A stretch of 64,000 bases of DNA from Treponemataceae bacterium (GCA_036307825.1 JAXJWW010000104.1:10678-74677); one strand, 5' to 3'; positions 2,955 to 60,935 are shown, counted from the first letter of the stretch. The notes: a model not told the origin generated them from the sequence alone. Program-made: numbers and translations.

Positions 2955-2963
2955 TGGTATAAT
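2955..2963 (+). promoter_or_regulatory. extended -10 promoter, candidate leaderless start
   Basis: TGgTATAAT. The hexamer ends 6 nt before ATG 2970. No SD. Confidence 0.5.
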
Positions 2964-2969
2964 ATAGGT

Positions 2970-3437
2970 ATGAAAACAATCAATAATAATAAATTATTTA
3001 AAATCACTCTTTTAATTTTAACTTTTTCGTTATTTGTACTTCCACTTTTTGCAAAGGAAACAAAATTTGACGAAGTAAAAACCTCTAAACGATTTATTTC
3101 CGATGTAGAAAAAATTACAGGTAAACTCTCTGACGAAGAAAAATCAATTGCTCGATTTTCTTTTAGAAATTCATTTACTTCTTTAGGATACAATTGGATT
3201 GGCAACTTAGATATTGATAAAGCTTCTAAAGAACTTACAAAGGAAGATTACAAGCTAGTTGTAGAGAAAGCTGCAAGTCTTACCAAAAATCCAGCTTCAC
3301 AAGGAGCTCTTAAATTAGGAAAAGCTGGCGAAAAAATATTAAAAGCATTAGCAAACTCAACAGAAAAGGCATTTAAAGCTGGCAAAAAATGGGTAAACGA
3401 AAACGCAGAAGAATTCGATAAAAAATATAGTGAATAG
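2970..3437 (+). CDS. hypothetical secreted protein
   Basis: Internal ATG gives MKTINNNKLFKITLLILTFSLFVLPLFA signal peptide. The track ORF from 2907 overlaps the tyrS 5' region. Confidence 0.55.
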   Translation: MKTINNNKLFKITLLILTFSLFVLPLFAKETKFDEVKTSKRFISDVEKITGKLSDEEKSIARFSFRNSFTSLGYNWIGNLDIDKASKELTKEDYKLVVEKAASLTKNPASQGALKLGKAGEKILKALANSTEKAFKAGKKWVNENAEEFDKKYSE

Positions 3438-3461
3438 AAATAATACTAATGGAGATTTAGT

Positions 3462-4010
3462 ATGTTAAAGAAAATTTTATTTGTAATTGTAATTTCTATT
3501 TCATTTTTTTCTTGTGAATTTCTCTTAGAACCCAATGTACCAATAAACTATATCAATTACACAATCATAGACTGCCCAACTGAAATTGTTTCTCGTGCTT
3601 TCAAATTTGCAGAACTTTACGAAAAAGAAAATACAGTTTACGAATGGGGCGGTGAAGATCCTTTACGAAACACTATCGGAATTGATTGCTCTGGTCTTGT
3701 GATTATGTGTTACAAATATGCTATGGTAGATACTTCATATAAATTGATAAATGAAGATATGACTGCTCAAAACATTCACGATTACGCTTCTACAAAAAAA
3801 TCCGTAAATTCCGTTCAAAAAGGCGATTTAGTTTTTATCGGCACAGAAGGCAGTAAAGAAATTACACACATCGGATTTTTTGAAAAATACGAAAATAACA
3901 AAGTTTATATACTAGATAGTTCCTCAGACTCAAACGGAGTTCATTACAACACATATCCAGTCGATTCTAAAAAAATCAAAGGATATGGCAGAATGAAACT
4001 TAAGTATTAA
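3462..4010 (+). CDS. NlpC/P60 family cell-wall peptidase (lipoprotein)
   Basis: Catalytic Cys context GIDCSGLV and His context ITHIGFF. N-terminal signal with FFSC lipobox. Confidence 0.75.
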   Translation: MLKKILFVIVISISFFSCEFLLEPNVPINYINYTIIDCPTEIVSRAFKFAELYEKENTVYEWGGEDPLRNTIGIDCSGLVIMCYKYAMVDTSYKLINEDMTAQNIHDYASTKKSVNSVQKGDLVFIGTEGSKEITHIGFFEKYENNKVYILDSSSDSNGVHYNTYPVDSKKIKGYGRMKLKY

Positions 4011-5796
4011 CCGCATCCACTTCACAACTGTAATACTCTTCTAGTTTTTCTCTACTTAAAATAAAAACTTGCTCTAGTTTTGGGTCAAAGTGGCTTCCCA
4101 TAGAATCAATCATAACACTATATGCTTGTTCAAAACTCATTGGTTCTTTGTAACATCGTTTACTTACCAAGGCATCATAAACATCAGCTATTGCCATAAT
4201 TCTTGACTCTAAAGGAATATCTTCGCATTTTAATTTATCAGGATATCCCATTCCATTCCACTTTTCGTGATGATGTTTTGCTACATTAGTTGCAACTTTT
4301 ACAAAATGTTCTTCTTCAACTCCGTTTAAGATTTTTTCAACAAGTTGTGCACTTTTTATAACATGAGATTGCATAATAGAAAATTCTTCATCAGTTAATT
4401 TTCCAGGCTTTCGTAAAATTTTATCATCAATTCCGATTTTACCCAAATCGTGCATCGGAGCAGCTTTAATTAAATCTTCGCAAAATTCATCACTTAGTTG
4501 TAAAATATTTTTTTCACGAATTACATCAATTAAAATTCTGATAACATCACTTGTGCGTTTAATATGACCGCCGGTACTATCATCTCGATTTTCTACAACA
4601 CTAGCAATTCCCAAAAGAATTTGCGATTGAATATTTTGAATGTGCTGAATTTTATCTCTGATTCTTTCTTCCAAATTAAAATTATGAGAAGACATCATTT
4701 CAAGATATTTCCATTTTTCAGTTTCTTCGTGAAGTTCGATAATGTAGCCACAAGCTTTTTCTTTGTACCAAATTCGGTCTATCATACATTGATAATGCTT
4801 TTCGTCATTTTCAAAAGTAAAATCATTTGAAGAACGCTTTGTATATTCTTTTATCCAATCTAAAAAGATTTTCATTTTTGGAACATTATCAACTTGAGAA
4901 TCTACAATACAATCTTTTAAGGCTGGAACAATTTTTTGTGCAACTGGATTACATCCAAGATAATTATTTTTATTATCAAAAACGATGTAACCATAAGATT
5001 CTTGTTTTTCCAAAGAACTGTTTACGCAATCTTTTATGTCGTACATTGCAGTTCGTCGATGAATGTACAAAAGAAACCATCCGTCTAAAACAAACATCAC
5101 CGCCATAATTTCAAAAGGAAAATTCAATGCTTTAGAAATAATGAACAACAAAGTATTTACAATTTCAACTAAAAATAAAGTTAAAACACTTTTTTTAGAA
5201 ACATTTTGTTTTTTGAAAAAGCTATAAAGCAAGGTTGAAATTCCCATAATAATATAGCCGTAAATAATTATGTAAAAAGTAAAATGTCCTATTCCGTATT
5301 CGTAATTAAGAATTGAACAGCCATAAAGTGAAGTCAAGGAAAAATCTTTTTTGTAATAAATTTCGCTAAATCCAGTTGATAAAACCATGATGTAAACCAA
5401 AAGACTGAAGGCATACAATGAATTTTTTATCCAACCTTTTAGTTTTAAATTACAAACAGCACAAATTAAAAAGAACAAAACTGGAGAAACAAAACATCCT
5501 CCAACATAAATTATTTTATTTGCTAAAATTGCTTCCGAAACAGATGATGAAGTTGCTCCTGCCAAATAACCAAGACAAGAAATTAACATCAATAAAAAAA
5601 GTATTGTAAAATAATAATTTATTCTTTTTCCTTCAAGACGAAAAATAAAAACAATAAAATTTATCAAAACAAGTAATGTTGTAATTATATAATATGGAAG
5701 CAAAATCTTTCTCCAATAAAATAAGATAACTAATAATAATATTTTATCATACAAATAAAATTTTTGGTAAAAAAAATATAAACAATTTTTATACAA
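4000..5796 (-). CDS. membrane-anchored HD-GYP domain protein (putative c-di-GMP phosphodiesterase)
   Basis: Multi-TM N-terminal half. C-terminal HDLGK ... HHEKWNGMGYP (HD-GYP signature). Start codon uncertain (TTG in track). Confidence 0.8.
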   Translation of the reverse strand: MYKNCLYFFYQKFYLYDKILLLVILFYWRKILLPYYIITTLLVLINFIVFIFRLEGKRINYYFTILFLLMLISCLGYLAGATSSSVSEAILANKIIYVGGCFVSPVLFFLICAVCNLKLKGWIKNSLYAFSLLVYIMVLSTGFSEIYYKKDFSLTSLYGCSILNYEYGIGHFTFYIIIYGYIIMGISTLLYSFFKKQNVSKKSVLTLFLVEIVNTLLFIISKALNFPFEIMAVMFVLDGWFLLYIHRRTAMYDIKDCVNSSLEKQESYGYIVFDNKNNYLGCNPVAQKIVPALKDCIVDSQVDNVPKMKIFLDWIKEYTKRSSNDFTFENDEKHYQCMIDRIWYKEKACGYIIELHEETEKWKYLEMMSSHNFNLEERIRDKIQHIQNIQSQILLGIASVVENRDDSTGGHIKRTSDVIRILIDVIREKNILQLSDEFCEDLIKAAPMHDLGKIGIDDKILRKPGKLTDEEFSIMQSHVIKSAQLVEKILNGVEEEHFVKVATNVAKHHHEKWNGMGYPDKLKCEDIPLESRIMAIADVYDALVSKRCYKEPMSFEQAYSVMIDSMGSHFDPKLEQVFILSREKLEEYYSCEVDAVNT

Positions 5797-5851
5797 AATT
5801 TAATTTAAATTACATCTTTACAGAAAATGTCATTTAGGATAAAGTAAAATC

Positions 5852-7871: not shown

Positions 7872-8912
7872 CTATAATAAATTACAAAGTTCGTCAACTT
7901 GTTTTTGTGTTGTTGCCCAACTTGTTGCAAATCGAACAACAGTATGAGTTTTATCAAATTTTTGCCAGTAACTAAATGAAACAGATTTTTTCAATTCTTC
8001 CATTTTAGAATTTTCTAACACAATAAATTTTTGGTTAGTTGGTGAATTTATAAAAATTCTATAACCTTTTTCGATAAAAGTTTTTTCAATTTTATCTGCC
8101 ATCAAAATTGCGTTGTCAGAAATTTTAAAATATAAATCATCTGAAAAAAGTGTGTCAAATTGCAAACCTAAAACCCAACCTTTTGCAAGCAAGGCGCCAC
8201 TTTGTTTTATCAAGGTAAAAAAATGAGGAACTAAATTTTCTTGAGTAAAAACAACTGCTTCACCAAACATGGCACCAACTTTTGTTCCGCCTATATAAAA
8301 TGCGTGAGCATATTTTGCAATATCTTTTAAAGTTACATTTTCATTTTGATTTTTACTTGCAGAAATTCCGTAACCTAATCTTGCACCATCAATGTATAAT
8401 TTCAAATTGTATTGGTCGCAAATTTTTCTAATTGATTTTAATTCTTCCAAAGAATAAATTGTTCCAAATTCAGTTGGAAAAGAAATATACACAACACCCG
8501 GTTTTACAATGTGTGCGTTATTTTCATCATCATAATAATTTTGCAAATATAAAAGTAAATCCTTACAAGAAATTTTTCCGTCGTAGTTTGGAAGCATCGT
8601 AACTTTATGACCTTTAGCTTCGATTGCACCTGCTTCATGTTCGGTGATATGTCCTGTGTTTGCAGAAATCACAGTTTCATATTTATTTAAAAGCGCGTCC
8701 AAAACTGTAGCATTAGTTTGAGTTCCTCCAACTAAAAAATAAATTTCTGCCTTTGGACAATCACAAGCCTTACGGATTTTTTCTTTTGCACTTTCACAAA
8801 TTTCATCACAACCATATCCTGTCATTTTTTCAAAATTGATTTTTTGCAATCTTTCCAAAATTAAAGGATGACAACCTTCCATATAATCGCTATCAAATCG
8901 TAAAATACTCAT
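7872..8912 (-). CDS. threonine aldolase / beta-eliminating lyase family PLP enzyme
   Basis: 346 aa. N-terminal FDSDYMEGCHP and GGTKVGAMFGEA (PLP-Lys region) resemble low-specificity threonine aldolases. Confidence 0.6.
   Translation of the reverse strand: MSILRFDSDYMEGCHPLILERLQKINFEKMTGYGCDEICESAKEKIRKACDCPKAEIYFLVGGTQTNATVLDALLNKYETVISANTGHITEHEAGAIEAKGHKVTMLPNYDGKISCKDLLLYLQNYYDDENNAHIVKPGVVYISFPTEFGTIYSLEELKSIRKICDQYNLKLYIDGARLGYGISASKNQNENVTLKDIAKYAHAFYIGGTKVGAMFGEAVVFTQENLVPHFFTLIKQSGALLAKGWVLGLQFDTLFSDDLYFKISDNAILMADKIEKTFIEKGYRIFINSPTNQKFIVLENSKMEELKKSVSFSYWQKFDKTHTVVRFATSWATTQKQVDELCNLL
8882..8912. repeat. direct repeat copy 1 (first 31 nt of the aldolase-like gene)
   Basis: tataatcGctatcaaatcgtaaAAtaCtcat matches 9322-9352 at 27 of 31 positions. 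Confidence 0.85.
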
Positions 8913-8918
8913 GCTGTA

Positions 8919-8947
8919 ATTTTATATTGTTGTTTGATTTATAGCAA
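8919..8947 (-). promoter_or_regulatory. sigma70-like promoter, candidate leaderless start of the aldolase-like gene
   Basis: TTGCTA-17-TAAAAT on the minus strand. 6-nt gap to ATG 8912. No SD. Confidence 0.5.
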
Positions 8948-9352: not shown

Positions 9353-9905
9353 ACTTTGCATTTATTTCATTTATAGCATCTGCCATAATTTTTTCAGCAT
9401 CAAATCCATCTACATCAAGCATCTGTGCAAAAATCAATTCTGTTTCTTTAATTCCAAAATAATCTTTACATAGACTTTCAATATAGTTATAAGAAAAATC
9501 TGGAATAAATTTTCCACCAGCAGTTGCAACATAATAAAGTTTTTTTGCCTTACACAATCCAACAGGTTTTCCATTTTCACCAAATTTTGTAACAAGACCT
9601 GTAACATAAATATTCTCGATAAAAATTTTTAATATTGCAGGAAATGATAAATCCCAATGAGGTGCAGAAATTACAATCTCATCAGCAGTTGAAAATAAAT
9701 TTGCCAACTTAAAAATTTCATCAGAAAAATTTTCTTGATTAACAAGTTCCGTTCGTTTTTCAATCATGGCTTCAGAATAAGGAGATAAGTTTTCATCTTC
9801 TAATTTTATTTCAATAATTTCATCATTAAATTTACTAAGTAAAACTTTTGCAAGCTTATCGGTTCTAGAAATTTTTCTAACACAAGCATTTACATATAAA
9901 ATCAT
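9345..9905 (-). CDS. flavodoxin-like fold NAD(P)H-dependent oxidoreductase
   Basis: About 186 aa. MILYVNACVR...ISAPHWDLSFPAILK layout resembles FMN-dependent NAD(P)H dehydrogenase/azoreductase-like proteins. ATG 9905 is preferred over the track TTG 9911. Confidence 0.55.
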   Translation of the reverse strand: MILYVNACVRKISRTDKLAKVLLSKFNDEIIEIKLEDENLSPYSEAMIEKRTELVNQENFSDEIFKLANLFSTADEIVISAPHWDLSFPAILKIFIENIYVTGLVTKFGENGKPVGLCKAKKLYYVATAGGKFIPDFSYNYIESLCKDYFGIKETELIFAQMLDVDGFDAEKIMADAINEINAKYE

Positions 9906-9911
9906 TTTCAA

Positions 9912-9920
9912 ATTATATCA
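9912..9920 (-). promoter_or_regulatory. extended -10 promoter, candidate leaderless start
   Basis: TGaTATAAT on the minus strand. 6-nt gap to ATG 9905. Confidence 0.5.
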
Positions 9921-12685: not shown

Positions 12686-13657
12686 TTAAAATGAATATGC
12701 GTAACTAAAAGCAATTCTTTCAAACCACCATTCTCGACCATTATAATCTAAGTTAAAGTTTGTAGCAGAACTTCCTTTATCACTAGAAAATCCTCGTCTA
12801 CTTGAAAATCTTGTTTGAATTGTTAAAGAATGATTTTCGTTAAACTTCAGAATACAGATAGGATTTATATTAACACGCATAAAAGATGGATTCCAATCTA
12901 AATATTTTGCATCAAAACTTGCTTCATCATAATATCCACTTAATTCAAATTGAAGACCAACAGTTTGTAAAACAAGTGGCATCTGATACCCCAAAATAAT
13001 TTGAGAATAATAATTCCAGCCATTTGCTTTTTCACCACTTGCTTGCCAAATCCATGGAGTTCCATTTTCAACGCCAGTTAATCCTGTGTACAAAATATCG
13101 TAAGAAGCTTGCATTACAACATGAGTCCAATCTCCAGGAACAATTGCCCCTACATCAAATTGAAATAAATTTGATAATCTAAATTCATAAAAGTAATTTT
13201 TAAAAGGAGTTAAACTTTTATATCCATTTTCTGCTGAATCTAAATCTCCCATTCCTTTGATGCCAATAAAATCCCAACCAGTTCCGATTTTTGCACTTGC
13301 TGTGAATTTTAAAAATGCAATTGGAGTAAATGCAACAAAAAACTGAGGCATTAAAGTTACAGGTGAAATTTCCAAAGCAGGTGAAATTGTAACATTGTTA
13401 CCTTTTACTAAAGGATTAGTTCCAAAGGGTGTTGGAATTTTGTAATCCATCTTTCCTGTAACACGAGCTTCTACAGCAGAATAAAATCCATCGAGAGGAG
13501 CAAATCGACTTACATCATCTTGTGGAAGCCCCATTGCAACAGGCGAAGATTTTGGATAATAAGCAAAATCTGTAATCAAGATAAATTTTGTTTCTGCTTC
13601 TGCAAAAACACCAAATGTAACTAATGAAATAACCAATAAAAAAATAATCTTTTTCAT
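12686..13657 (-). CDS. hypothetical outer-membrane beta-barrel-like protein
   Basis: Signal peptide. Alternating aromatic/polar pattern. C-terminal ...AFSYAYSF aromatic terminus. Confidence 0.5.
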   Translation of the reverse strand: MKKIIFLLVISLVTFGVFAEAETKFILITDFAYYPKSSPVAMGLPQDDVSRFAPLDGFYSAVEARVTGKMDYKIPTPFGTNPLVKGNNVTISPALEISPVTLMPQFFVAFTPIAFLKFTASAKIGTGWDFIGIKGMGDLDSAENGYKSLTPFKNYFYEFRLSNLFQFDVGAIVPGDWTHVVMQASYDILYTGLTGVENGTPWIWQASGEKANGWNYYSQIILGYQMPLVLQTVGLQFELSGYYDEASFDAKYLDWNPSFMRVNINPICILKFNENHSLTIQTRFSSRRGFSSDKGSSATNFNLDYNGREWWFERIAFSYAYSF

Positions 13658-13663
13658 AAGGTG

Positions 13664-13692
13664 ATTATAACATAAATCGATAAATTTGTCGT
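13664..13692 (-). promoter_or_regulatory. sigma70-like promoter, candidate leaderless start
   Basis: ACGACA-17-TATAAT on the minus strand. 6-nt gap (CACCTT) to ATG 13657. No SD. Confidence 0.5.
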
Positions 13693-14975: not shown

Positions 14976-15845
14976 CTAGCTGATAACTTTTTCAAATATA
15001 AGTTTTATAATTCTACATCGTTCTTCAAAATTCCCTCGTTTGGGAGTTTCTACAGTAAAAACAAGCGGAATACCTCTATCCTTAAAGTACATACCAGTCG
15101 TAACGGAACCTTTTAATTTCATGTACCATTGAGCATAAAAAGCTGAATACAATAAACCATTTTTCACTTTTAGAATTACATCTACATATTCATTTTCAAG
15201 CAAAACATTTTGTTTTTTTAAATAACTCAAAATATTTTTTGCATATTTTTTTCCTTTTTGATTGTAAGCATAAAAAAATGTTCCATCACAAGTAGCTTCG
15301 TGAAAATCAATCACTAAATCATATTTTTCTTTTGTAGCTTGAGTGAGAATTTGCATTTCTTTTGTGGTTTGAGTATTCAAATCTCTATTTGGATCTGTAT
15401 GATTTGAACAATATCTATAATTTCTTTCAAAACCAAAAGGATTCATAATAAAAATAAAATCAACTTGAGTATTATTAGGAATTTTAATTTTCCCTTCATT
15501 TATTTCTTGAATTATATTCTTTATCCCAAAAACTGGCGCAGGTTCATTTCCATGTAAACCACATAAAAACAAATATTTTCTCGAATCAATATTTTGATAA
15601 CTTTCCGACTTTATATAAGAAATTTTATAAACTGGATAATCATATTTTCCAAAACTATCCTTACATTGAATATTTCCAATGTTTGTAACTGTAAAATCAG
15701 AATTTAATTCATAAACGAAGGAAGTAAGATTTTCATAATTTCTAGATTGAATAGGTTTGATATCAGCAGAAAAAAGATTGTTTGAAAAAAGTACATAAAG
15801 AAAAGTGAAGAACAAAAATTTAATTTTTCTTTTTAGATTATTCAT
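14976..15845 (-). CDS. M14-type zinc carboxypeptidase / succinylglutamate desuccinylase-aspartoacylase family protein
   Basis: Signal peptide. Zn-ligand contexts GLHGNEPAP and DFHEA. Confidence 0.6.
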   Translation of the reverse strand: MNNLKRKIKFLFFTFLYVLFSNNLFSADIKPIQSRNYENLTSFVYELNSDFTVTNIGNIQCKDSFGKYDYPVYKISYIKSESYQNIDSRKYLFLCGLHGNEPAPVFGIKNIIQEINEGKIKIPNNTQVDFIFIMNPFGFERNYRYCSNHTDPNRDLNTQTTKEMQILTQATKEKYDLVIDFHEATCDGTFFYAYNQKGKKYAKNILSYLKKQNVLLENEYVDVILKVKNGLLYSAFYAQWYMKLKGSVTTGMYFKDRGIPLVFTVETPKRGNFEERCRIIKLIFEKVIS

Positions 15846-15851
15846 AAAGAA

Positions 15852-15860
15852 ATTTTATCA
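15852..15860 (-). promoter_or_regulatory. extended -10 promoter, candidate leaderless start
   Basis: TGaTAAAAT on the minus strand. 6-nt gap to ATG 15845. Confidence 0.45.
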
Positions 15861-15948
15861 TAAAATATTTTTTTGTAAATATGTATTGTTGCAACAAAAA
15901 ATATATCACTTTCAACTTAATTTAATAAACGGACTAAGTAATCAAATT

Positions 15949-23196: not shown

Positions 23197-24691
23197 ATTT
23201 TACTCCAGTAAATAATTCAAATTGTTTATATCCTTGATATTTTAACATATCAAATCCATTTGCTGTTTTACATCCAGCCATTTGTGCCCGATTCAAAATC
23301 GGTGTAACTTGGGGATGATAAATTACATCGTAAACATTTTCATATCCTTTGAAATTATAAAAATGCAAAGGATCATTTTTTGAATCCGAAATTTCTTTTT
23401 CACCTACTGCCAATCCCATTGATGTAGTTTGAATAATAAGTGAAGAATAAAGTTCTAGTTTGTGTAAAGATTCAGAAGTTAAAGGCGCATAATCAAATCC
23501 GTATTCCTGCGCAAGAGCTTTTGCTTTAGAAACAGTTCTGTTAAAAATACAAGCCTTTCCTTTTAATTTTTTTATAACATAAGCAATTGCTCTTGCGGCT
23601 CCTCCCGCTCCAATAATTGCAACTTTACAATGTCTTAGATTTTTTACACCTAAAAATTCCAAAAGTGAACGCTGAAAACCTTCTGCGTCAGTATTGTATC
23701 CTAACCAATCTTCTCCATGTCGGATAATTGTATTTGAAGCACCAATATCACCAACTGATTCAGAAACTGTTGTTAAATGAGGCAAAACGTCTTCTTTATG
23801 AGGAACAGTAACAGACATTCCTTTTATTCCAAGTTCTTGTGCAAATTCTAAGGCTTCTTCAATTTTTTTTGCTCTAACTGGAATATACAAAGAATTCATA
23901 CCATGTTTTTTATATCCAGAATTATGAAGTTCTGGACTTGCTGTTGCACTTAGCGGATATCCAGTAATTCCATAGAGAGTTGTTTTGTCATCAATGTTTC
24001 TAAAATTATAAATTTCGTTCAAAGTGATAGGGTCAATTTGACCAATTTCAGAAAGAATTGAATTTTCTTGTTTTGGTGAAGTATAAGTGATACAAGAATT
24101 AATTTTATTTGCTAAAATTCTTGTTGCTTGTCCTAAAGGCCCCATGGCAATAATGATATGTTCAAAATCAGTTATGTTTTTTGCTTGTTTAAACATTTGA
24201 GTTACATCAGACAAAGATTGTGGCATACAAGCAATTTTAGGAATTTCAAAACCAGTTGTTCGCATTTTTTGCATCATATCAGCAATATTTGAAACCATAC
24301 CAGTCATATTATGATAACTACGAATAATTTTTGTTCCGAAAGCCAAGGCAGCATCTTGCAAACTTGAAACATTATAATCAGATTCCATATCGATGTATGC
24401 AAAGTTTTTTCTGCTATCTTTTTCAGCATAAGCCAAAGCCCTTGCAAAAAGTGTTGTTCTAGAAACTTCTGTTCCATCGAATAAACCACCGTCATTTTTT
24501 CTGCGGATAGTTAAAATACAAGGAATACCTGCAAGTTCTGGAAATTTACGAATCAATAATCTTTCATTTGGCAAAAGATAATCAACTCTAAGTTCAACAA
24601 TATCAATATAATTTCTGTAAGTTTCAATTAAATCTAAGTCTTCTTGAATTGTCTTTCCTGTAAGACATAAACAAATCTTTGAACGCTGCAT
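23174..24691 (-). CDS. bifunctional type I 3-dehydroquinate dehydratase / shikimate dehydrogenase
   Basis: 505 aa. N-terminal AroD-like half. C-terminal AroE half with the GAGGAARA NADP site. 23-nt overlap with rpiA. Confidence 0.8.
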   Translation of the reverse strand: MQRSKICLCLTGKTIQEDLDLIETYRNYIDIVELRVDYLLPNERLLIRKFPELAGIPCILTIRRKNDGGLFDGTEVSRTTLFARALAYAEKDSRKNFAYIDMESDYNVSSLQDAALAFGTKIIRSYHNMTGMVSNIADMMQKMRTTGFEIPKIACMPQSLSDVTQMFKQAKNITDFEHIIIAMGPLGQATRILANKINSCITYTSPKQENSILSEIGQIDPITLNEIYNFRNIDDKTTLYGITGYPLSATASPELHNSGYKKHGMNSLYIPVRAKKIEEALEFAQELGIKGMSVTVPHKEDVLPHLTTVSESVGDIGASNTIIRHGEDWLGYNTDAEGFQRSLLEFLGVKNLRHCKVAIIGAGGAARAIAYVIKKLKGKACIFNRTVSKAKALAQEYGFDYAPLTSESLHKLELYSSLIIQTTSMGLAVGEKEISDSKNDPLHFYNFKGYENVYDVIYHPQVTPILNRAQMAGCKTANGFDMLKYQGYKQFELFTGVKYENIDSE

Positions 24692-24761
24692 ACCTTTGAG
24701 AATACTTTAAATACGGGTATTTTTCAATAGAGAAAAAATATTTAACTAAAGGATTTACAGA

Positions 24762-25016
24762 TTATTGATTTTCAGAATAAGCCTTTCTTACTGCTATAGC
24801 TAATTGGTCAGCACAAGAAGTAGAACGACCTCCACAAGAATTTCCTTTTAAAGTGGATTCAATGTAGTCTACGGTTTTTCCTTCAAGTAACTTAGAAATT
24901 GCTTTTAGATTTCCGTTACAACCACCATAAAAACTGATATTGGAAATTACATCTCCGTCAATATCAAAATTAATTTGTCTTGCGCAAACATTTTCTGTTT
25001 TATATGTATAATTCAT
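24762..25016 (-). CDS. TSCPD-domain small protein (TIGR03905-like)
   Basis: 84 aa. FYGGCNGN...SCGGRSTSCADQLA four-Cys pattern. Confidence 0.65.
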   Translation of the reverse strand: MNYTYKTENVCARQINFDIDGDVISNISFYGGCNGNLKAISKLLEGKTVDYIESTLKGNSCGGRSTSCADQLAIAVRKAYSENQ

Positions 25017-25022
25017 GCTTAA

Positions 25023-25051
25023 ATAATATGAAAGTAAATTGTATAAGTCAA
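25023..25051 (-). promoter_or_regulatory. sigma70-like promoter, candidate leaderless start
   Basis: TTGACT-17-TATTAT on the minus strand. 6-nt gap to ATG 25016. No SD. Confidence 0.55.
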
Positions 25052-28100: not shown

Positions 28101-28129
28101 TTGACTTTTTATAAAGGAATATATATCAT
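28101..28129 (+). promoter_or_regulatory. sigma70-like promoter, candidate leaderless start of the methyltransferase
   Basis: TTGACT-17-TATCAT. 6-nt gap to ATG 28136. No SD. Confidence 0.5.
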
Positions 28130-28135
28130 TTCGAT

Positions 28136-29563
28136 ATGGAAACAAATAAGCAGTACCTCTCAGTAGAAGATTTATCCAATATTCTAAAATGTACACCTCA
28201 ATATGTTAGAAAACTCATACGTGATAACAAAATAGAAGCTGAACAAGTTGGTAAAACTTGGGTTATTAATTCTGCAATATTGAATAACAAAGAACTATTA
28301 TTTAAATTTTCTAAAGATGTTCCCAACCAAATCTGTAAAATGAAAAATAGAGATAAATATATTGCCCTTAGTTTTTTTACAGGAGCTATGGGATTAGATT
28401 ATGGAATAGAAAAAGAGGGGATTTGTCCAATTTTAGCATCAGAAATCGATCCAAATGCAAGAAAAACTATTCTATTAAATAGACCTGATATAGGTTTAAT
28501 CGGAGATATAAATAATTATTCTGCTTCTGAAATTCGAAAATATGCAAATATATCAGAAAATCAAGAAATAGACTTAATTATTGGTGGACCACCATGTCAA
28601 GCTTTTAGTACGGCTGGACAAAGAAAAGGATTTCAAGATAAAAGAGGTAATGTTTTTCTAACTTTTATAGACAGAATTCTTGAAATGCGTCCAAAATACG
28701 CTGTAATTGAAAATGTTAGAGGAATTTTATCGGCTCCATTTGAATCAGAAGAAATTCAAAAACATTTTGGATTCGCCCCAAAAACACCAGATGAAAAAAA
28801 AGGAGGAGCTTTATTGTATATATTAAATAAATTAGAGGAAGGTGGATATACCGTTACTTTTAATTTATACAATTCAGCAAATTATGGTGCTCCCCAAAAG
28901 CGAGAACGTGTAGTTTTTTTTTGTTCCCGAAATGGAGAAAAAATTCCTTACATGTCTCCTACTCATGATGAATTTGGAAATTATAATTTGCCAAAGTGGA
29001 AAACAGTTCGTCAAGTTCTAAAAGATTTAAAAGAAGAAGAGCAAATATCTATGAAATTTCCAGAACGTAGATTGAAATATTTTAAAATGTTAAAAGCTGG
29101 ACAATACTGGAAACATTTACCTAAAGAAGTTCAATATGAAGCAATGGGGGAAAAACTTAATTTAGGAGGAGGGAAAACAGGTTTTTTTCGTCGTATAGAT
29201 TGGGATACCCCTGCTCCAACATTAGTTACAGACCCGACAATGCCAGCTACAGATTTATGCCATCCAGAAAAAGATAGACCCCTAAGTATTCAAGAATATG
29301 CAAGAATACAAGAATTTCCTGATGATTGGAAATTTTTCGGAGAAATGAAAGATATTTACAAACAAATTGGAAATGCAGTTCCTATAAGTTTAGGAATTGC
29401 CATAGGAAAACAAATAAAAAAACTTCTTAACAACGAAAAAATTGAATTAGCCCCTATAAATTTTCCATTTTCAAGATATACTTATACTGATGACGAGTCA
29501 ATTAGAAAAATGATTAAAAAAAGGTTAAAAAAAGTAAATCAACAACTTGAATTATTTGAATAA
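28136..29563 (+). CDS. DNA (cytosine-5)-methyltransferase with N-terminal HTH domain
   Basis: Motif I FFTGAMGLDYG, IV GGPPCQAFS, VI ENVRGIL, VIII QKRERV, X GNAVP. First about 70 aa are an excisionase/MerR-like HTH (LSVEDLSNILKCTPQYVRKLI). Confidence 0.9.
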   Translation: METNKQYLSVEDLSNILKCTPQYVRKLIRDNKIEAEQVGKTWVINSAILNNKELLFKFSKDVPNQICKMKNRDKYIALSFFTGAMGLDYGIEKEGICPILASEIDPNARKTILLNRPDIGLIGDINNYSASEIRKYANISENQEIDLIIGGPPCQAFSTAGQRKGFQDKRGNVFLTFIDRILEMRPKYAVIENVRGILSAPFESEEIQKHFGFAPKTPDEKKGGALLYILNKLEEGGYTVTFNLYNSANYGAPQKRERVVFFCSRNGEKIPYMSPTHDEFGNYNLPKWKTVRQVLKDLKEEEQISMKFPERRLKYFKMLKAGQYWKHLPKEVQYEAMGEKLNLGGGKTGFFRRIDWDTPAPTLVTDPTMPATDLCHPEKDRPLSIQEYARIQEFPDDWKFFGEMKDIYKQIGNAVPISLGIAIGKQIKKLLNNEKIELAPINFPFSRYTYTDDESIRKMIKKRLKKVNQQLELFE

Positions 29564-35135: not shown

Positions 35136-35142
35136 AAAATTG

Positions 35143-40477: not shown

Positions 40478-40506
40478 TTGAAACTAAACTCTAGGTATGT
40501 TAAATT
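40478..40506 (+). promoter_or_regulatory. sigma70-like promoter, candidate leaderless start of def
   Basis: TTGAAA-17-TAAATT. 6-nt gap to ATG 40513. No SD. Confidence 0.55.
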
Positions 40507-40512
40507 TTACCT

Positions 40513-41061
40513 ATGCTAGAAATAATTAAATTAGATAACGAACTTCTTAGACAAGTGTCTGAACCTGTAAAAGAAGTAAATGATGAAATACGCACCTTAA
40601 TAAGCGAAATGTTTGAAACTATGGATGCCGCAGAAGGCGTTGGACTAGCCGCACCACAAGTTGGAAAACTTTTGCGACTTTTTGTTTTACAAGCTGATGA
40701 CGGAATTCGCCGAGCGTTTATCAATCCACAAATTATTGCAACCTCTGCAGAAACTTGTGAATACGAAGAAGGCTGTCTTTCTATTCCAAAAGCCTACGAA
40801 ACAATTGTTCGTCCTGCAAAAGTAACAGTTCAAGCATTAAACGAAAACGGAAAACCTTTTACTCTAGAAGCAGATGGATTTTTGGCTCGTATCATTCAAC
40901 ATGAATATGACCACTTAGACGGATTTTTGTATATCGATAGAGGCGACGAAGAAACAAAACAAAGAATCATCGAAACTTTTAACCGAAGACAAGCTCGTAA
41001 AGCTGAAAAAGAAAGATTAAAAGCAAAGAAAGCTGCAAAAATTGCTGCTAAAAAAGGATAA
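40513..41061 (+). CDS. def: peptide deformylase
   Basis: GVGLAAPQ, EGCLS and HEYDHL motifs. Lys-rich C-terminal tail. Confidence 0.9.
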   Translation: MLEIIKLDNELLRQVSEPVKEVNDEIRTLISEMFETMDAAEGVGLAAPQVGKLLRLFVLQADDGIRRAFINPQIIATSAETCEYEEGCLSIPKAYETIVRPAKVTVQALNENGKPFTLEADGFLARIIQHEYDHLDGFLYIDRGDEETKQRIIETFNRRQARKAEKERLKAKKAAKIAAKKG

Positions 41062-45464: not shown

Positions 45465-47105
45465 TTACCATGAATAAAGTTTTACAGTTTCAGTTTTTCC
45501 TCGGATTTCGGCATCGGCAACAAAGCGAAAATCAATATTTTTATCATCATTTTGATTTTGTAAATTGATTTGATTTAGTGTGGTTTCAGAAATCAATAAA
45601 TCTGTATTGTAATTTTTGCAAAGAGATTCAATTCTACTTGCTGTATTTACAGTATCACCGATTACTGTGTATTCCATTCGATTTTCTGCCCCAATGTTTC
45701 CTGCAAGAACTGAACCAGAATGTAAACCAATTCCAAAAGAAATTTGATTTAATCCTTCTTTTGAAAATTTTTCATTAAGAAGTTCAAGCGTTTTTTTCAT
45801 TTCCAAAGCGGCATTGTAAGCATCAAAAGCATGATTTTCTGATTTTACTGGAGCACCAAAAATTGCCATCACAGCATCCCCGATATATTTATTGATAACA
45901 CCATGATTTTTTGAAATACATTTTCCCATTTGGGTAAAATATTGATTCAAAAGATTTACGACCGCTTCAGGTTTCATATTTTCGGAAAGTGAAGTAAAGC
46001 CGCGAATATCACAAAACATTACAGTAACATCACAATTTTCGCCACCAAGAGAAATATTTCCACTTAAAAGATGGTCGCGAATTTCTGGGTCAACAACTTT
46101 TCCAAAGGTATCTCGAATAAATTCTTTTTCTTTTAGTGATTCTGCCATTTCATTGAAAGTGTCAGATAAAAGTCCCAATTCATCATTTGAAATATTTTTA
46201 ACTTTTACAGAATAATCCCCTTTTGTAATTTTTTCAGTTCCTTCAATTAGCTTTGTTAGAGGAACTGTAAAGATTCTCATAAAAACGATTGTTAAAGATA
46301 GAGAACAGCCAAAAAGGATAATTGATATTTTAATGGTATTCCAATTTATAGGAATTTGATTGTTTATTTGCACAGACACAAAGGATGATAGAATAAAAAT
46401 TATTGGAAAAACTGAAACTGTTACAAAAAAGAAAATAAACAGAAAATTCAGAGAAAACTTTTTCACGCCTGGGATTTTTGAAACCTTGCCTTCTGGAAAA
46501 AGCCGAGGTAAAACAGCACTTCGGTTTACTGTTTCTGTAACAAAATAAGAAACAACAAAACTAAAAATTGATTCTAAAACTATAAAAATCAAAGAGCTAA
46601 ACAGAATATATGTAAGATTTATATTAAATGTGAATTTTGCATATATACAAAAAATTACTTCTACTATAAGGGATAAAATCCAGCCAAGAATTCCTAATAA
46701 AGAATATTTAATAGGAAGATTAACAACTTTTTGTGCTGCAATTATGTCTTCCTTTGCATGTAAAATTGATAAACTGTCTTTTATGCAAATTATTGAAGGA
46801 ATAAGAAACACGATAATAGTAAGAGAAGTTATCAATATTTCATTTGAATCAACAAAATTTTTCCATACAAGCATATCCGCTGTATAGGCAACGGGAATAT
46901 CTACAGTAACTGGAAGTAGCTGAGCCATAAAATTAGCAAACAAAACACTTGCTAAATAAACAAGAGAAACTCTAAAACAATATTTTTTATCAATATTAAA
47001 TGAAGATGTAAAATCTGTTTTTGATGTAAATTTTTCAGCCATAAAAAGAATTATACACAAGAAAATACAAGAGAGCAAGAAATAAAAAAAGTTTACGATA
47101 ACCAT
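45465..47105 (-). CDS. membrane sensor class III adenylate/guanylate cyclase with HAMP domain
   Basis: VTVMFCDIRGFTSLSE, KYIGDAVMAIFGAP and GDTVNTASRIES cyclase motifs. Multi-TM N-terminus plus HAMP. Confidence 0.85.
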   Translation of the reverse strand: MVIVNFFYFLLSCIFLCIILFMAEKFTSKTDFTSSFNIDKKYCFRVSLVYLASVLFANFMAQLLPVTVDIPVAYTADMLVWKNFVDSNEILITSLTIIVFLIPSIICIKDSLSILHAKEDIIAAQKVVNLPIKYSLLGILGWILSLIVEVIFCIYAKFTFNINLTYILFSSLIFIVLESIFSFVVSYFVTETVNRSAVLPRLFPEGKVSKIPGVKKFSLNFLFIFFFVTVSVFPIIFILSSFVSVQINNQIPINWNTIKISIILFGCSLSLTIVFMRIFTVPLTKLIEGTEKITKGDYSVKVKNISNDELGLLSDTFNEMAESLKEKEFIRDTFGKVVDPEIRDHLLSGNISLGGENCDVTVMFCDIRGFTSLSENMKPEAVVNLLNQYFTQMGKCISKNHGVINKYIGDAVMAIFGAPVKSENHAFDAYNAALEMKKTLELLNEKFSKEGLNQISFGIGLHSGSVLAGNIGAENRMEYTVIGDTVNTASRIESLCKNYNTDLLISETTLNQINLQNQNDDKNIDFRFVADAEIRGKTETVKLYSW

Positions 47106-50034: not shown

Positions 50035-50898
50035 TTACATCAACACAAGTGGGCGTCTTTTACAAGAAAAATCTACCTTGCCATCTCTTAAAGTTTTATG
50101 GAGAGCAAAAAAATCTTGTCTTGAAAAAAGTTTACAACCTAAATCAACTTTGTATGGAATAAACATTCCAAAGTCCCAGTATTCTAAATTTTTTTCTTGC
50201 AAGAATTTGCAAAGGGCTGACATTTGAATATTTCCAACATGATTTCGTTTTCTGAATCCAGAAAGGCTACTGTACAAATTACCATTTCTAAAACCAATTT
50301 CGCCTGCAACTAATTCATTTGTGGTTTTATCCCAAACTTCAACACTGTGAATTTTTGTTCCGTATTTTGTTGGAGTTCCATAATGAATTTGCCTAAAACC
50401 ATCTACCAATAGTGGAGTAAGCCAAGTTTTTTCGTATGTTTCTAAAATGTTTTTTACACAACCTTCAAAATCTTCATCGATAGAAAATTCAAGATTATCG
50501 CAATATTTTGATAATTTTTTTGAAAAATGTGCTTCTGTAAGTTTTAAAACGGCTCTGTCTTTGTGATGTTTTACAAGAAAAAATTCGTTTAATGGAAAAT
50601 TCTCCATATCGTCCATAGAATTGCTTAAACAATCTGCCATGGGAAATAAGCCTTTGTAACAAACTGCATCAATCCATTCCGGAGAAAAATCAAAACCAAA
50701 TACATATTCACTATCAGGATTGTATAGGAAGAATTCTAAATTATCCAAGTCTTCTTCAGTTTGAACAAAGCCTCCACCATACGCTTCAGTTAAAAGATTC
50801 AAATATGAAGGAAAAACTTCTTTAAAAAAATGGTCAAAATAAGCTTCGTCGTCTTGTTCCATGGATAAAATTATAGGTTTCAAAGTAAAGGTAGTCAA
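50035..50898 (-). CDS. aat: leucyl/phenylalanyl-tRNA--protein transferase family protein
   Basis: GLFPM, HFSKKLSK, HSVEVW...LVAGEIG and SGF...GNIQM blocks follow the Aat order. Extended N-terminus. TTG start uncertain. Confidence 0.55.
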   Translation of the reverse strand: MTTFTLKPIILSMEQDDEAYFDHFFKEVFPSYLNLLTEAYGGGFVQTEEDLDNLEFFLYNPDSEYVFGFDFSPEWIDAVCYKGLFPMADCLSNSMDDMENFPLNEFFLVKHHKDRAVLKLTEAHFSKKLSKYCDNLEFSIDEDFEGCVKNILETYEKTWLTPLLVDGFRQIHYGTPTKYGTKIHSVEVWDKTTNELVAGEIGFRNGNLYSSLSGFRKRNHVGNIQMSALCKFLQEKNLEYWDFGMFIPYKVDLGCKLFSRQDFFALHKTLRDGKVDFSCKRRPLVLM

Positions 50899-50946: not shown

Positions 50947-50976
50947 TTGAAAATTTATTGTTAGCAATGTTAAAAT
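50947..50976 (+). promoter_or_regulatory. sigma70-like promoter with leaderless-type ATG at 50983
   Basis: TTGAAA-18-TAAAAT. 6-nt gap to ATG 50983, which is out of frame with the helicase ORF. Confidence 0.5.
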
Positions 50977-50982
50977 AAAAAA

Positions 50983-51133
50983 ATGAATATCGTTAAAAAT
51001 ATTTTTTTTTAAAAACAAAAAGACAAAAAATAACACCATCAATACAGATAACGAAATATTTACAAGAACAACTCAAGAACAGCAAATAAAACAATCTCAA
51101 GAAGATACACAAAATTTTGAATTAACTTGCGAA
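50983..51133 (+). other. interrupted 5' extension of the helicase gene (T9 tract 51002-51010)
   Basis: ATG 50983 reads MNIVKNIFF then TAA. The helicase frame is open from 50987 with no in-frame ATG/GTG/TTG before 51134. One fewer T fuses the two. Confidence 0.6.
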
Positions 51134-56579: not shown

Positions 56580-57327
56580 GAGCAATCACCTCTGCTGCAA
56601 GTTGTTTGTAACTTCTTGCTCCAAGACAAGCGGTATCATACATTGAAATTGGCAATCCGTGGGAAGGTGCTTCTGACAAGCGCACATTTCGTGGAATAAT
56701 TGTGTTAAAAACTGAATCTTTAAAATATGCTTTTACTTGGCTTACAACTTCATGAGCAAGACGAGTTCTTGAATCGTACATTGTAAAGAAAATTCCGCCA
56801 ATCACCAAATTTGGATTTATTGTTTTTTGCACTTTTTTTACAGTTTGTAAAAGCAAAGAAATTCCTTCAAGAGCAAAATATTCACATTGCATTGGAACTA
56901 AAACTGCATCTGCGGCGGCAAGTCCATTCAATGTTAAAATTCCCAAAGATGGTGGGCAATCTATCAAAATATAATCGTATTTATCTCTAAGAGGCTCTAA
57001 AACTTTTTTTAGATAAAATTCTCTATCCTCTTGGTCAACTAACTCAATAGCAGCACCAGACAAATCAATAGAAGCAGGAATTGCATCTAAATTTGCAACA
57101 GGAGTTTTCTTAATTGTCTGTTCAGCCGTGGCTTGTTCTGCCATCAATTCATAGATAGTTGGTTTTTCTTTTGAAAGTCCAACACCAGAAGACATATTTC
57201 CTTGAGAGTCAAAATCAACTAATAGTACCTTTTTTCCTGCTTCTGCAAGATAAGCACCCAAATTTACTACAGAAGTGGTCTTTCCTACACCACCTTTTTG
57301 ATTTACAAAAACATATATTTTTGCCAT
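56572..57327 (-). CDS. parA: chromosome partitioning ATPase ParA/Soj
   Basis: Deviant Walker A KGGVGKTT. 251 aa. Confidence 0.9.
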   Translation of the reverse strand: MAKIYVFVNQKGGVGKTTSVVNLGAYLAEAGKKVLLVDFDSQGNMSSGVGLSKEKPTIYELMAEQATAEQTIKKTPVANLDAIPASIDLSGAAIELVDQEDREFYLKKVLEPLRDKYDYILIDCPPSLGILTLNGLAAADAVLVPMQCEYFALEGISLLLQTVKKVQKTINPNLVIGGIFFTMYDSRTRLAHEVVSQVKAYFKDSVFNTIIPRNVRLSEAPSHGLPISMYDTACLGARSYKQLAAEVIARG

Positions 57328-57333
57328 ATATAT

Positions 57334-57342
57334 AGTATATCA
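57334..57342 (-). promoter_or_regulatory. extended -10 promoter, candidate leaderless start of parA
   Basis: TGaTATACT on the minus strand. 6-nt gap to ATG 57327. No SD. Confidence 0.5.
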
Positions 57343-57360
57343 TTTTTTTTTAATAAAGTA

Positions 57361-57366
57361 TATATT
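57361..57366 (+). promoter_or_regulatory. -10 box, candidate leaderless start of the methyltransferase gene
   Basis: TATATT. 6-nt gap to ATG 57373. No SD. No clear -35. Confidence 0.4.
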
Positions 57367-57372
57367 AGTTTT

Positions 57373-58548
57373 ATGGAAGATTTAAAACAAAATTTCAATC
57401 AAAAATACGCAGAAATTTCTCAAAATCTTGTTTCTGCAACATTTGCAAAGCCAACAGTGGATTCAAAATTCAATAAAATCAAAATTAATATAAATAACCA
57501 CAGTTTTTTTGTGCAAATGTACACTTCTACACAGGCTTTTCACAAGAATTTATCAAATGAAGAACTTAAAACTTTTTTACAAGAAAATATCGGCGTAAAT
57601 TTTAAGCATGTTTATATAGAAACAACTGATAAAAAATTCACTTTTTTAACAAATAAAAAAGGAAAAATCACTATTTTAGAAAACAGAAATAATAAAAATC
57701 CAGTTGTTCAAGAAAAAAATTCTTCAAATAACTCAAAAATAAAAAATTACATAATTCAAGAAGGAAAACCAGTTCCCTTTTTAGTTCACTTAGGAGTTAT
57801 GAATAAGGACGGGAAAGTTCTTGCACAAAAATACGATAAATTCAAACAAATAAATAGATTTTTAGAATACATAAAAGATATTTTGCCAGAAATAAACAAT
57901 GGACAAACTTTAAAAATAATCGACTTTGGTTGTGGAAAATCTTATCTCACTTTTGCAGTTTATCATTTTATTAATGAAATTGAAAAAATCCCAGTTGAAA
58001 TTATTGGATTAGATTTAAAAGATGATGTAATTACAATGTGTAATCTTTTAGCAAAAGAATTTGGATACAAAAATCTACATTTTTACAACGGAACAGTTGA
58101 AGATTATTTTGCAAAAATTGAAGATAAAAAATGCGATTTAGTTATTACACTTCACGCTTGTGATATAGCAACAGATTACGCAATTGCTTCTGCAATAAAA
58201 CAAAATTCAAAGGCAATTTTGTCAGTTCCTTGTTGCCAACATGAGTTAAATCAAAATTATAAGCAAAGTTCTAATCAGGCAATAAATCAAATGTTAAAAT
58301 ACGGAATCGTAAAAGAAAGATTTTTATCTTTAACAACTGATGTTATGCGATGCGAACTTTTAAAAGAAAAAGGTTATTCAACTCAACTTTTAGAATTTAT
58401 CGATGTAAGTCACACACCAAAAAATCTTTTAATTCGTGCCGTAAAAAAGAAAAATTTTGACCAAAGTGAAAGTTCTACATCAAGTGGCTACAAAGAAATT
58501 GCAAACTTAGTGAATCAAGATATTTGTCTTGCAAAACTTATGGAATAG
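57373..58548 (+). CDS. SAM-dependent methyltransferase
   Basis: Motif I IIDFGCGKSYL, post-I GLDL. Start moved to MEDLKQNF (the track ORF from 57298 overlaps parA). Confidence 0.65.
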   Translation: MEDLKQNFNQKYAEISQNLVSATFAKPTVDSKFNKIKININNHSFFVQMYTSTQAFHKNLSNEELKTFLQENIGVNFKHVYIETTDKKFTFLTNKKGKITILENRNNKNPVVQEKNSSNNSKIKNYIIQEGKPVPFLVHLGVMNKDGKVLAQKYDKFKQINRFLEYIKDILPEINNGQTLKIIDFGCGKSYLTFAVYHFINEIEKIPVEIIGLDLKDDVITMCNLLAKEFGYKNLHFYNGTVEDYFAKIEDKKCDLVITLHACDIATDYAIASAIKQNSKAILSVPCCQHELNQNYKQSSNQAINQMLKYGIVKERFLSLTTDVMRCELLKEKGYSTQLLEFIDVSHTPKNLLIRAVKKKNFDQSESSTSSGYKEIANLVNQDICLAKLME

Positions 58549-59791: not shown

Positions 59792-59829
59792 CAAAATGAA
59801 CGTATCCTAAAAGTTATCCAGTATTGTTT

Positions 59830-59956
59830 CATCAAGTGGCTACAAAGAACTTGCAAAGTTGATGGAACAAGATATTTGTCTTGCAAAACTACTAGAAAGT
59901 AACATATACTGAGAATATATTTTAAATATCGAGGTTTTATAATGGAAGATAAAATT
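59830..59956. repeat. direct repeat copy B (orphan methyltransferase 3' end, spacer, start of the NifU-like gene)
   Basis: Encodes ...SSGYKELAKLMEQDICLAKLLE versus ...SSGYKEIANLVNQDICLAKLME in the intact gene. Confidence 0.85.
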
Positions 59957-60166
59957 AAAAGAGCTATTGAACATATCCGACCACAATTACAGGCTGACGG
60001 TGGAGATATCGAATTTGTAAAATTTGATGAAGAAGGCAAAGTTCATGTAAGATTAACTGGTGCTTGTGGAAGTTGCCCAATGGCAACAATGACATTAAAA
60101 TCTGGAGTAGAAGTTTTCTTAAAAGAAAATATTCCAGAAGTTACAGAAGTTGTTCAAGTTTTCTAA
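59942..60166 (+). CDS. NifU-like Fe-S cluster domain protein
   Basis: 74 aa. GGDIEFVKFDEEGKVHVRLTGACGSCPMATMTLK (CxxC). Confidence 0.8.
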   Translation: MEDKIKRAIEHIRPQLQADGGDIEFVKFDEEGKVHVRLTGACGSCPMATMTLKSGVEVFLKENIPEVTEVVQVF

Positions 60167-60189
60167 TTGAACCTTATCAATTTTTTATA

Positions 60190-60218
60190 TTGAAAATAAA
60201 TATTCTCCTTGCTATAAT
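60190..60218 (+). promoter_or_regulatory. consensus-like promoter, candidate leaderless start
   Basis: TTGAAA-17-TATAAT. 6-nt gap to ATG 60225. No SD. Confidence 0.6.
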
Positions 60219-60224
60219 GATTAT

Positions 60225-60935
60225 ATGAGTAAAAATATCATTTTAGCAGGGAAAGAATATTCCAAAAATTCTGATTTAGAAAAAATCGCACAAACTTTAG
60301 AATTAAATCCATTTGTTACAACTCAATTTTTTGAAGAAGCAAACACAAAAATTATTTCTACAAATACAACTTGGAACAGAAGTTCTCCGATTTCAGCACA
60401 TTCAGTAGTTATCAATGCAGAAAATTATTTTGGACAAATTGATGGTGCAGTTTTATTCTTTGATTCACTTGCTTATGATAAAATTTTTGTACATAACACC
60501 CTTGATGAATTTACTCGCGCCACAGATGAGTTAATTTTAGGATACAACTATCTTACTTTAGAACTTTTACGCAGATTTTCTGAACATAAACAAGGAAAAC
60601 TTTTTTTTGTAATTCAAAAACAAGAATCCCTTGCAGATAATTTGAAAAATCCACAAAAACAACAATCTCCTCAACAAAATTTAGGTTTGATTACAAGCAT
60701 GGCTCAAAGTGCCTTTAAATCATTTGCAGAAAATATCGCTGCTTTGAATTTTAATCCAAACGGAAATTTTGTTTATCTTTTAGAAGTTTCTTCTGAAGTT
60801 TCAGAAGAAGAAATTCTTTCCTGGATTTCAACAAAAATGCAAGAAAATTTGCCAGTTTACAAAAATCCTAAAAATGCTGTAACTTGGCAATCAACAGAAA
60901 ATAAAAGTAAATTTCAAATTCCTTTTATGAAATAG
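60225..60935 (+). CDS. hypothetical protein
   Basis: 236-aa ORF, 19 nt upstream of metF. No motif recognised. Confidence 0.5.
   Translation: MSKNIILAGKEYSKNSDLEKIAQTLELNPFVTTQFFEEANTKIISTNTTWNRSSPISAHSVVINAENYFGQIDGAVLFFDSLAYDKIFVHNTLDEFTRATDELILGYNYLTLELLRRFSEHKQGKLFFVIQKQESLADNLKNPQKQQSPQQNLGLITSMAQSAFKSFAENIAALNFNPNGNFVYLLEVSSEVSEEEILSWISTKMQENLPVYKNPKNAVTWQSTENKSKFQIPFMK

Follow-up and report, generated by a model that had tools for sequence, protein, structure and literature searches.

In a 64,000-nt stretch of DNA from a Treponemataceae bacterium (GCA_036307825.1, JAXJWW010000104.1:10678-74677; C104:10678-74677), hereafter referred to as the window, and in the draft genome to which it belongs, many genes appear to carry sigma-70-type promoters placed such that the mRNA would start at the ATG itself. 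Such leaderless initiation very probably constitutes a genome-wide second initiation mode in this organism. An initial annotation of the window had proposed many leaderless mRNAs on the basis of at least 13 start codons preceded by a -10-like hexamer at a gap of 6 nt (in one case 7 nt), and this reading is supported by a spike of the hexamer at one offset, by features that only promoters have, by the transcription context of the genes and by conservation in relatives. According to the proposed mechanism, the -10 hexamer would occupy positions -12 to -7, and the seventh base after the hexamer, the A of the ATG, would be +1. Sigma-70 holoenzyme starting at that A would produce an mRNA with a 5'-terminal AUG, devoid of a 5' untranslated region (UTR) and of a Shine-Dalgarno (SD) sequence, and translation would begin at the 5'-terminal AUG without pairing between SD and anti-SD. 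Leaderless mRNAs are bound directly at the 5' AUG by 70S ribosomes or by 30S-IF2-fMet-tRNA complexes. Roughly a quarter of divergently transcribed units would use the leaderless mode, and the SD-led mode would serve operon-internal and other leading genes.

A -10 hexamer is enriched at a fixed distance from start codons

The source organism is a host-associated Treponema (Spirochaetota) of the gut or rumen type, with a ParA that shares 76-83% identity with its counterparts in Treponema genomes and metagenome-assembled genomes from rumen and gut. Its draft genome comprises 2.59 Mb in 122 contigs at a GC content of 31%, and intergenic DNA has an A+T content of 71%. A simple caller of longest open reading frames (ORFs), with a minimum length of 80 aa, yielded a gene set of 2,197 ORFs that do not overlap and together account for 87% of the genome. 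For each ORF, hexamers were profiled at all offsets upstream of the first start codon, with offsets 17-40 as background, and a generic sigma-70 model was applied that consists of the -35 box, a spacer of 16-18 nt, the TGn extension and the -10 box; its consensus frequencies are those of published E. coli promoter compilations. As controls for the offset profile, 8,921 other intergenic ATGs were used together with ATGs inside genes, the latter both in frame and out of frame.

Across 2,196 ORFs, a perfect TATAAT occurred at -12 in 30 genes, whereas offsets 17-40 averaged 5.2 (P=8e-14), and TAnnnT with at least 5/6 matches was present at this position in 99 genes versus approximately 30. With the sigma-70 model at a score of at least 6, offsets 12, 13 and 14 gave 121, 50 and 34 genes, respectively, at a background of 15.7 (P=1e-63). 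The enrichment at offset 12 over other offsets was thus 6- to 8-fold for both the perfect TATAAT and the full model. The profile of -10 scores that had been suggested as a check on the initial annotation accordingly displayed a sharp spike at the 6-nt gap and smaller ones at 7-8 nt, and no spike at -12 occurred at any of the control ATGs (in-frame internal, out-of-frame or other intergenic).

TAnnnT was found at any upstream offset with a frequency of about 4-5%. A bump of TAnnnT at offset 6 was discarded, since it arises artificially from in-frame TAA/TAG stops directly before the first start codon. TATAAT at -12 holds no in-frame stop, and the peak at -12 is therefore not created by the first-start rule. 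When all in-frame ATGs within the 5' portion of an ORF were admitted as starts, 176 ORFs scored at least 8 at offsets 12-14, compared to 17-25 at shifted offsets. The null-corrected excess peaked at approximately 245 ORFs, and we estimate that the leaderless class comprises about 150-245 genes, corresponding to 7-11% of ORFs.

The hexamer is accompanied by promoter features and depends on transcription context

Promoter features were determined on the 99 genes in which a good hexamer starts at -12. Positions -35, -34 and -33 were occupied by T, T and G in 78, 59 and 53% of these genes, followed by A and C, so that TTGAC precedes the hexamer by exactly 17 nt. The TGn extension preceded the hexamer in 36% of cases, compared to 8% where these hexamers occur at other intergenic positions (P=1e-14). 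The start codon was ATG in 91% of the offset-12 set as opposed to 70% in other genes (P=2e-6). In 74% of the set a T was located at -1, directly before the A of the ATG; T(-1), A(+1) and T(+2) together form a Y-1 R+1 Y+2 start element as described across bacteria (PMC12641261). At the sites in the window, no SD was found upstream. The further claim of the initial annotation that an SD-led mode coexists with the leaderless one was confirmed: in more than 1,000 genes, GGAG/GAGG/AGGA peaks at -9 to -12. Searches of the window for Rfam families and tRNAs gave no match, indicating that the sites are not promoters of riboswitches or tRNAs.

The promoter signal strongly depended on the transcription context (Fisher P=7e-25). 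The null-corrected excess amounted to 23-25% for divergent genes, to 6-9% for co-directional genes separated by more than 40 nt, and to 0.6-2.5% for those at most 40 nt apart. At a score of at least 8, the signal was present in 12% of operon-leading genes. Operon-internal genes were nearly without a -10 signal and had GGAG-type SDs instead.

The geometry is conserved in related genomes

Conservation was most extensive for parA and def. In 46 of 76 Treponema-type parA loci, a promoter with a score of at least 6 was located 6-9 nt before the ATG, compared to two at shifted offsets, and an SD of at least 5 nt was found in none of the Treponema-type loci in the extended -10 comparison (76 loci). 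At def, which encodes peptide deformylase, TTGAC-17-TAnnnT-6/7-ATG occurred in 19 of 29 relatives, which cover the genus, most of the family's genera and four genomes at the order level; some of the spacers are GC-rich, and def is SD-led in the families f2, f3 and f6. For the gene starting at position 60225 of the window, 10 of 13 orthologues have TATAAT or TATACT upstream of the ATG at a distance of 6-9 nt, and this holds down to a protein identity of 26-35%. The geometry was also present at mnmG in 11 of 29 relatives; in most order-level relatives, mnmG is located directly behind an upstream coding frame, which we take to be mnmE. Shifted offsets gave 0-2 hits in the tests on these four genes, and at all four the geometry was held while spacers and GC content diverged.

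The gene for the beta-eliminating-lyase-like protein (8912) is of the leaderless type in the genus relatives G006 and G008, each with a different upstream sequence, and SD-led in several other genera. Similarly, the TSCPD gene (25016) is of the leaderless type in G006, where the promoter sequence is unrelated, and SD-led in G008 and G009. Leaderless and SD-led forms alternate within one genus among the orthologues of TSCPD (24762-25016) and of the lyase (7872-8912; loci L257-L285), and the unrelated upstream sequences suggest that genes readily switch their initiation mode upon a change of gene context. For the AstE/AspA-like gene (15845), no orthologue was found in 30 relatives.

Offset profiles of related genomes were computed on genome samples. 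Three Treponema genomes with a GC content of 44-49% (G001, G004 and G003) had 16, 13 and 8 genes at offset 12 at backgrounds of approximately 3, 1.5 and 2, respectively. In another genus of the family (53% GC) 12 genes were found at a background of about 3, and in another family of the order (46% GC) 16 genes, again at about 3. The spike in these five genomes of 44-53% GC indicates that the feature is independent of AT-richness. The order-level genome G027 (70% GC) gave no clear offset profile; at that GC content the longest-ORF caller is unreliable. Judged from these comparisons, the leaderless geometry appears to be a trait of at least the Treponemataceae and part of the Treponematales.

A broader reading is that leaderless initiation is ancestral and selectively maintained in the whole of the Treponematales, where it would serve approximately a quarter of independently transcribed units. 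The geometry of def, parA-parB, mnmG and aroD-aroE would then have been held over family- to order-level divergence, and accessory genes would toggle between the SD-led and the leaderless mode with operon position. We regard this as a tentative proposal with somewhat less than even chances. If it is true, the reliance of Treponema on leaderless translation would be close to that of Actinobacteria or Deinococcus, and gene starts in Treponema genomes, including those of cultured oral and pathogenic species, would need systematic re-annotation.

Alternative explanations

TA-rich hexamers are common upstream of starts in a genome of 31% GC, and a convenient offset may simply have been picked. The A+T content of intergenic DNA of 71%, the presence of TAnnnT at about 4-5% of any offset and the artefactual bump at offset 6 illustrate how such a coincidence might arise. 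However, the 6- to 8-fold spike at offset 12 (P=8e-14 and P=1e-63) is absent at control ATGs and recurs in relatives of 44-53% GC, and TATAAT at -12 is free of in-frame stops. The probability of a chance pattern is therefore negligible, and the offset profile together with the controls refutes it. The hexamer might also be no promoter but a translational signal on the mRNA, either an AT-rich enhancer bound by S1 or a non-SD ribosome-binding site as in group B of GeneMarkS-2. In favor of such a role, the hexamer lies in the same zone, -12 to -7, as the SD, and AT-rich upstream elements help initiation in some phyla (PMC5397173, PMC6028130). A non-SD ribosome-binding site would, however, be expected before operon-internal genes as well (PMC6028130), whereas the excess here was 0.6-2.5% for closely spaced co-directional genes and 23-25% for divergent ones. 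This confinement of the signal to genes that need their own promoter, as expected of a promoter, excludes a non-SD ribosome-binding site. TTGAC 17 nt upstream and TGn have no role in translation, and we consider a translational signal very improbable.

It is somewhat more conceivable, but still unlikely, that the promoters are real and many of the genes are not strictly or not solely leaderless, owing to leaders of 1-5 nt, a second upstream promoter or a downstream start codon. Both here and among the orthologues, gaps often measure 7-9 nt, many of the short-UTR mRNAs of Leptospira and Borrelia have leaders of 1-9 nt (PMC5243855, PMC5314773), and orthologues of the Methyltransf_32 protein encoded in the window differ by 17 N-terminal residues. 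On the other hand, the 6-nt gap is dominant and places +1 on the A, T at -1 and the ATG fit the start element, and Pfam N-termini fit the proposed ATGs. Furthermore, among ORFs with such a promoter, only 5 of 174 offered another candidate start preceded by an SD of at least 5 nt. Promoters that set the mRNA start on the ATG therefore remain the preferred explanation.

Several points nevertheless weigh against this explanation. At gaps of 7-9 nt, the mRNA may have a leader of 1-3 nt instead of strictly none, and extra upstream promoters might give rise to leadered isoforms. We infer the actual transcription start and 5'-AUG translation from the position of the signals. The gene set derives from a longest-ORF caller rather than a trained gene finder, and the estimated false-discovery rate at score 8 is approximately 12%. 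The 3' end of the 16S rRNA (GTAACAAGGTA...CCTCC) was not found in the 122-contig draft assembly, from which the rRNA operon is probably missing; SD use was therefore deduced from the GGAG/GAGG/AGGA peak and not from the anti-SD sequence. With regard to individual sites in the window, 57373 (score 4.0) and 57327 (score 6.8) are weak and lean on conservation instead of score, and 50983 is no plain gene start.

Comparison with known leaderless systems

The pattern belongs to the known class of bacterial leaderless genes and represents no new mechanism. TANNNT, a sigma-70 -10-like signal approximately 12 bp upstream of starts, has been assigned to leaderless genes and was found in many bacteria, among them 6 of 18 Spirochaetes genomes, in 1.8-6.9% of genes (Zheng et al. 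2011, BMC Genomics 12:361, PMC3160421). Treponema, Borrelia and Leptospira are not named in the supplementary text files of that study. The share found here, 7-11% of ORFs, is higher, with the reservation that the methods differ. Zheng et al. also observed that orthologues switch between the SD-led and the leaderless mode (PMC3160421), as do the TSCPD and lyase orthologues here. New in comparison to that study are the -35 box, TGn, T at -1 and the dependence on operon context, as well as the conservation, which is order-wide for def and family- to genus-wide for parA.

The geometry also resembles that of GeneMarkS-2 group C, in which a Pribnow box is located 6-8 nt from the start of first operon genes and SD sites are used elsewhere (Lomsadze et al. 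2018, PMC6028130). As in group C, the other genes here have SD sites. This group consists mainly of Actinobacteria and Deinococcus-Thermus, and predictions put the leaderless share of their transcripts at 25-50% (PMC6028130). The values obtained here with our own promoter model instead of GeneMarkS-2, 12% of operon-leading genes under the strict threshold and approximately 23-25% of divergent genes, are at or below that range.

Within the phylum, differential RNA sequencing (dRNA-seq) of Leptospira interrogans revealed approximately 440 mRNAs with a UTR of less than 10 nt, and the transcription start site (TSS) coincided with the start codon in 170-184 (PMC5243855). In Borrelia burgdorferi, 85 mRNAs had a UTR of less than 10 nt (PMC5314773). 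These are experimental maps in other spirochaete groups, whereas the evidence on Treponema presented here is computational. The Leptospira study recovered no sigma-70 motif; here, both the -35 and the -10 box are clear. No published TSS map of Treponema was found in the literature searched. Mycobacteria and Deinococcus are high-GC Terrabacteria in which leaderless genes start with ATG and GTG. In contrast, the organism studied here is a low-GC spirochaete with a strong preference for ATG (91%). The mycobacterial and Deinococcus transcriptomes (Cortes 2013; Shell 2015; de Groot 2014), as far as they are cited in PMC5314773 and PMC5243855, include a large class of mRNAs that begin at the start codon without an SD, beside SD-led genes.

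The value of the findings is practical rather than conceptual. Gene starts can be corrected, six of them in the window, and promoter and TSS are predicted to the single base for approximately 150-245 genes of an uncultured gut Treponema. Two initiation modes would coexist across the Treponematales, also at the essential genes def and parA. Because no published TSS map of Treponema was found in the literature searched, the predictions provide a ready set for dRNA-seq tests and for promoter and reporter design in tractable species.

Putative leaderless sites in the window

All 13 promoter-ATG sites of the initial annotation were present (Table 1), 12 with TAnnnT-6 nt-ATG and 35135 with the 7-nt gap that had been noted for it, and the -35 boxes and TGn extensions were found as described. 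One of them, 50983, is no simple gene start, as its ATG opens only a 9-codon ORF. Four perfect TATAAT at one offset had been considered hard to attribute to AT-richness alone, which was corroborated for the approximately 66 ORFs of the window (expected number 0.16, P=2e-5). At least three more good sites were absent from the earlier list, all with a 7-nt gap: 50862, which is the strongest site of the window, 47042 and 24691. Possible further sites are 5852, a weaker candidate, and 17780.

Table 1. Putative promoter-ATG sites in the window and Pfam matches of the encoded proteins. Sites are named by the position of the ATG; Pfam matches are given as protein residues/profile residues.
Site	Coordinates	Strand	Promoter geometry	Gene or product	Score	Pfam match
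2970	2936..2972	+	TAGACA-16-TGgTATAAT-6 nt-ATG; no SD	155-aa hypothetical protein	10.1	
8912	8910..8947	-	TTGCTA-17-TAAAAT-6 nt-ATG	beta-eliminating-lyase-like protein	8.0	
9905	9903..9920	-	TGaTATAAT-6 nt-ATG	flavodoxin-like	7.1	2-183/3-196 (Flavodoxin_2)
13657	13655..13672	-	TGtTATAAT-6 nt-ATG; no SD	323-aa protein	8.6	
15845	15843..15879	-	TTTACA-16-TGaTAAAAT-6 nt-ATG	AstE/AspA-like	8.1	
24691	24689..24727	-	TTGAAA-17-TATTCT-7 nt-ATG; no SD	aroD-aroE fusion	8.0	7-228/1-230 (DHquinase_I)
25016	25014..25051	-	TTGACT-17-TATTAT-6 nt-ATG	TSCPD-domain protein	10.1	3-80/1-88
28136	28101..28138	+	TTGACT-17-TATCAT-6 nt-ATG; no SD	HTH-fused m5C DNA methyltransferase	11.4	
35135	35133..35171	-	TTGCAT-17-TATACT-7 nt-ATG	mnmG		GIDA profile from residue 9
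40513	40478..40515	+	TTGAAA-17-TGtTAAATT-6 nt-ATG	def (peptide deformylase)	9.1	1-148/1-154
47042	47040..47078	-	TTGCTC-17-TATAAT-7 nt-ATG	HAMP-adenylate/guanylate cyclase	9.3	
50862	50860..50898	-	TTGACT-17-TATAAT-7 nt-ATG	Leu/Phe-tRNA-protein-transferase-like	12.3	
50983	50947..50985	+	TTGAAA-18-TGtTAAAAT-6 nt-ATG	9-codon ORF	9.7	
57327	57325..57342	-	TGaTATACT-6 nt-ATG	parA, then SD-led parB	6.8	3-175/2-176
57373	57361..57375	+	TATATT-6 nt-ATG; no -35	Methyltransf_32 protein	4.0	
60225	60190..60227	+	TTGAAA-17-TGcTATAAT-6 nt-ATG	236-aa protein upstream of MTHFR	12.0	no match
				acyl-ACP thioesterase		6-129/7-131

Among the listed sites, those of def (40513), parA (57327), 60225 and mnmG (35135) are best backed and strongly supported. 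The sites 2970, 8912, 9905, 13657, 15845, 25016 and 28136 are supported by score and context, and 57373, the weakest, is a weak but plausible leaderless site. The gene at 2970 is transcribed divergently from a gene ending at 2913. The product encoded at 13657 has a signal-peptide-like N-terminus (MKKIIFLLVI).

Gene starts and protein N-termini

For seven genes, Pfam profiles start at residues 1-9 of the proposed proteins (Table 1), and in the case of def, parA and the 60225 gene the N-termini of the orthologues agree. Six of the putative leaderless ATGs are preceded in frame by another TTG or ATG. These pairs (earlier codon/leaderless ATG) are 2907/2970, where the earlier codon is a TTG and the first start codon of the ORF, 9911/9905, 35171/35135, 47105/47042, where ATG 47042 lies inside the longest ORF starting at ATG 47105, 50898/50862 and 57298/57373. 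The earlier codons indicate that longest-ORF annotation would add spurious N-terminal extensions of 2-25 residues at these six sites. The initial annotation had used the hexamer pattern to choose the starts of three genes. Two of these choices agree with Pfam, namely mnmG, with the GIDA match beginning at residue 9, and the flavodoxin-like gene; the start chosen for the helicase, 50983, is out of frame.

ATG 50983 opens only MNIVKNIFF*, and the PIF1-like helicase lies in the +1 frame, which is open from position 50987. Alignments with homologues of the helicase (42% identity) begin at residues 39-44 of this open frame, a point that lies upstream of the first in-frame ATG (51134). A T9 run at 51002-51010 is located between the 50983 mini-ORF and the helicase frame, and in this region (50947-51136) a one-base length change or a slip in the T9 run would join the two. 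Possible reasons are an error in the assembly, a phase-variable tract and programmed frameshifting.

At 57325-57375, parA and the divergent Methyltransf_32 gene are separated by 45 bp between their ATGs. The putative leaderless promoters overlap back to back, with the -10 box of each located within the upstream region of the other promoter. Genome-wide, 11 divergent pairs had both genes classed as leaderless, and in 9 of these 11 the ATGs are 54-80 bp apart. Most orthologues of the methyltransferase (57373-57423; loci L010-L040) start 17 residues further in, with M-I-L-S-A-T-L-S-K. As the -10 box is still located 6-9 nt before the ATG of these orthologues, the N-terminus appears to have shifted while the contact between promoter and ATG was kept.

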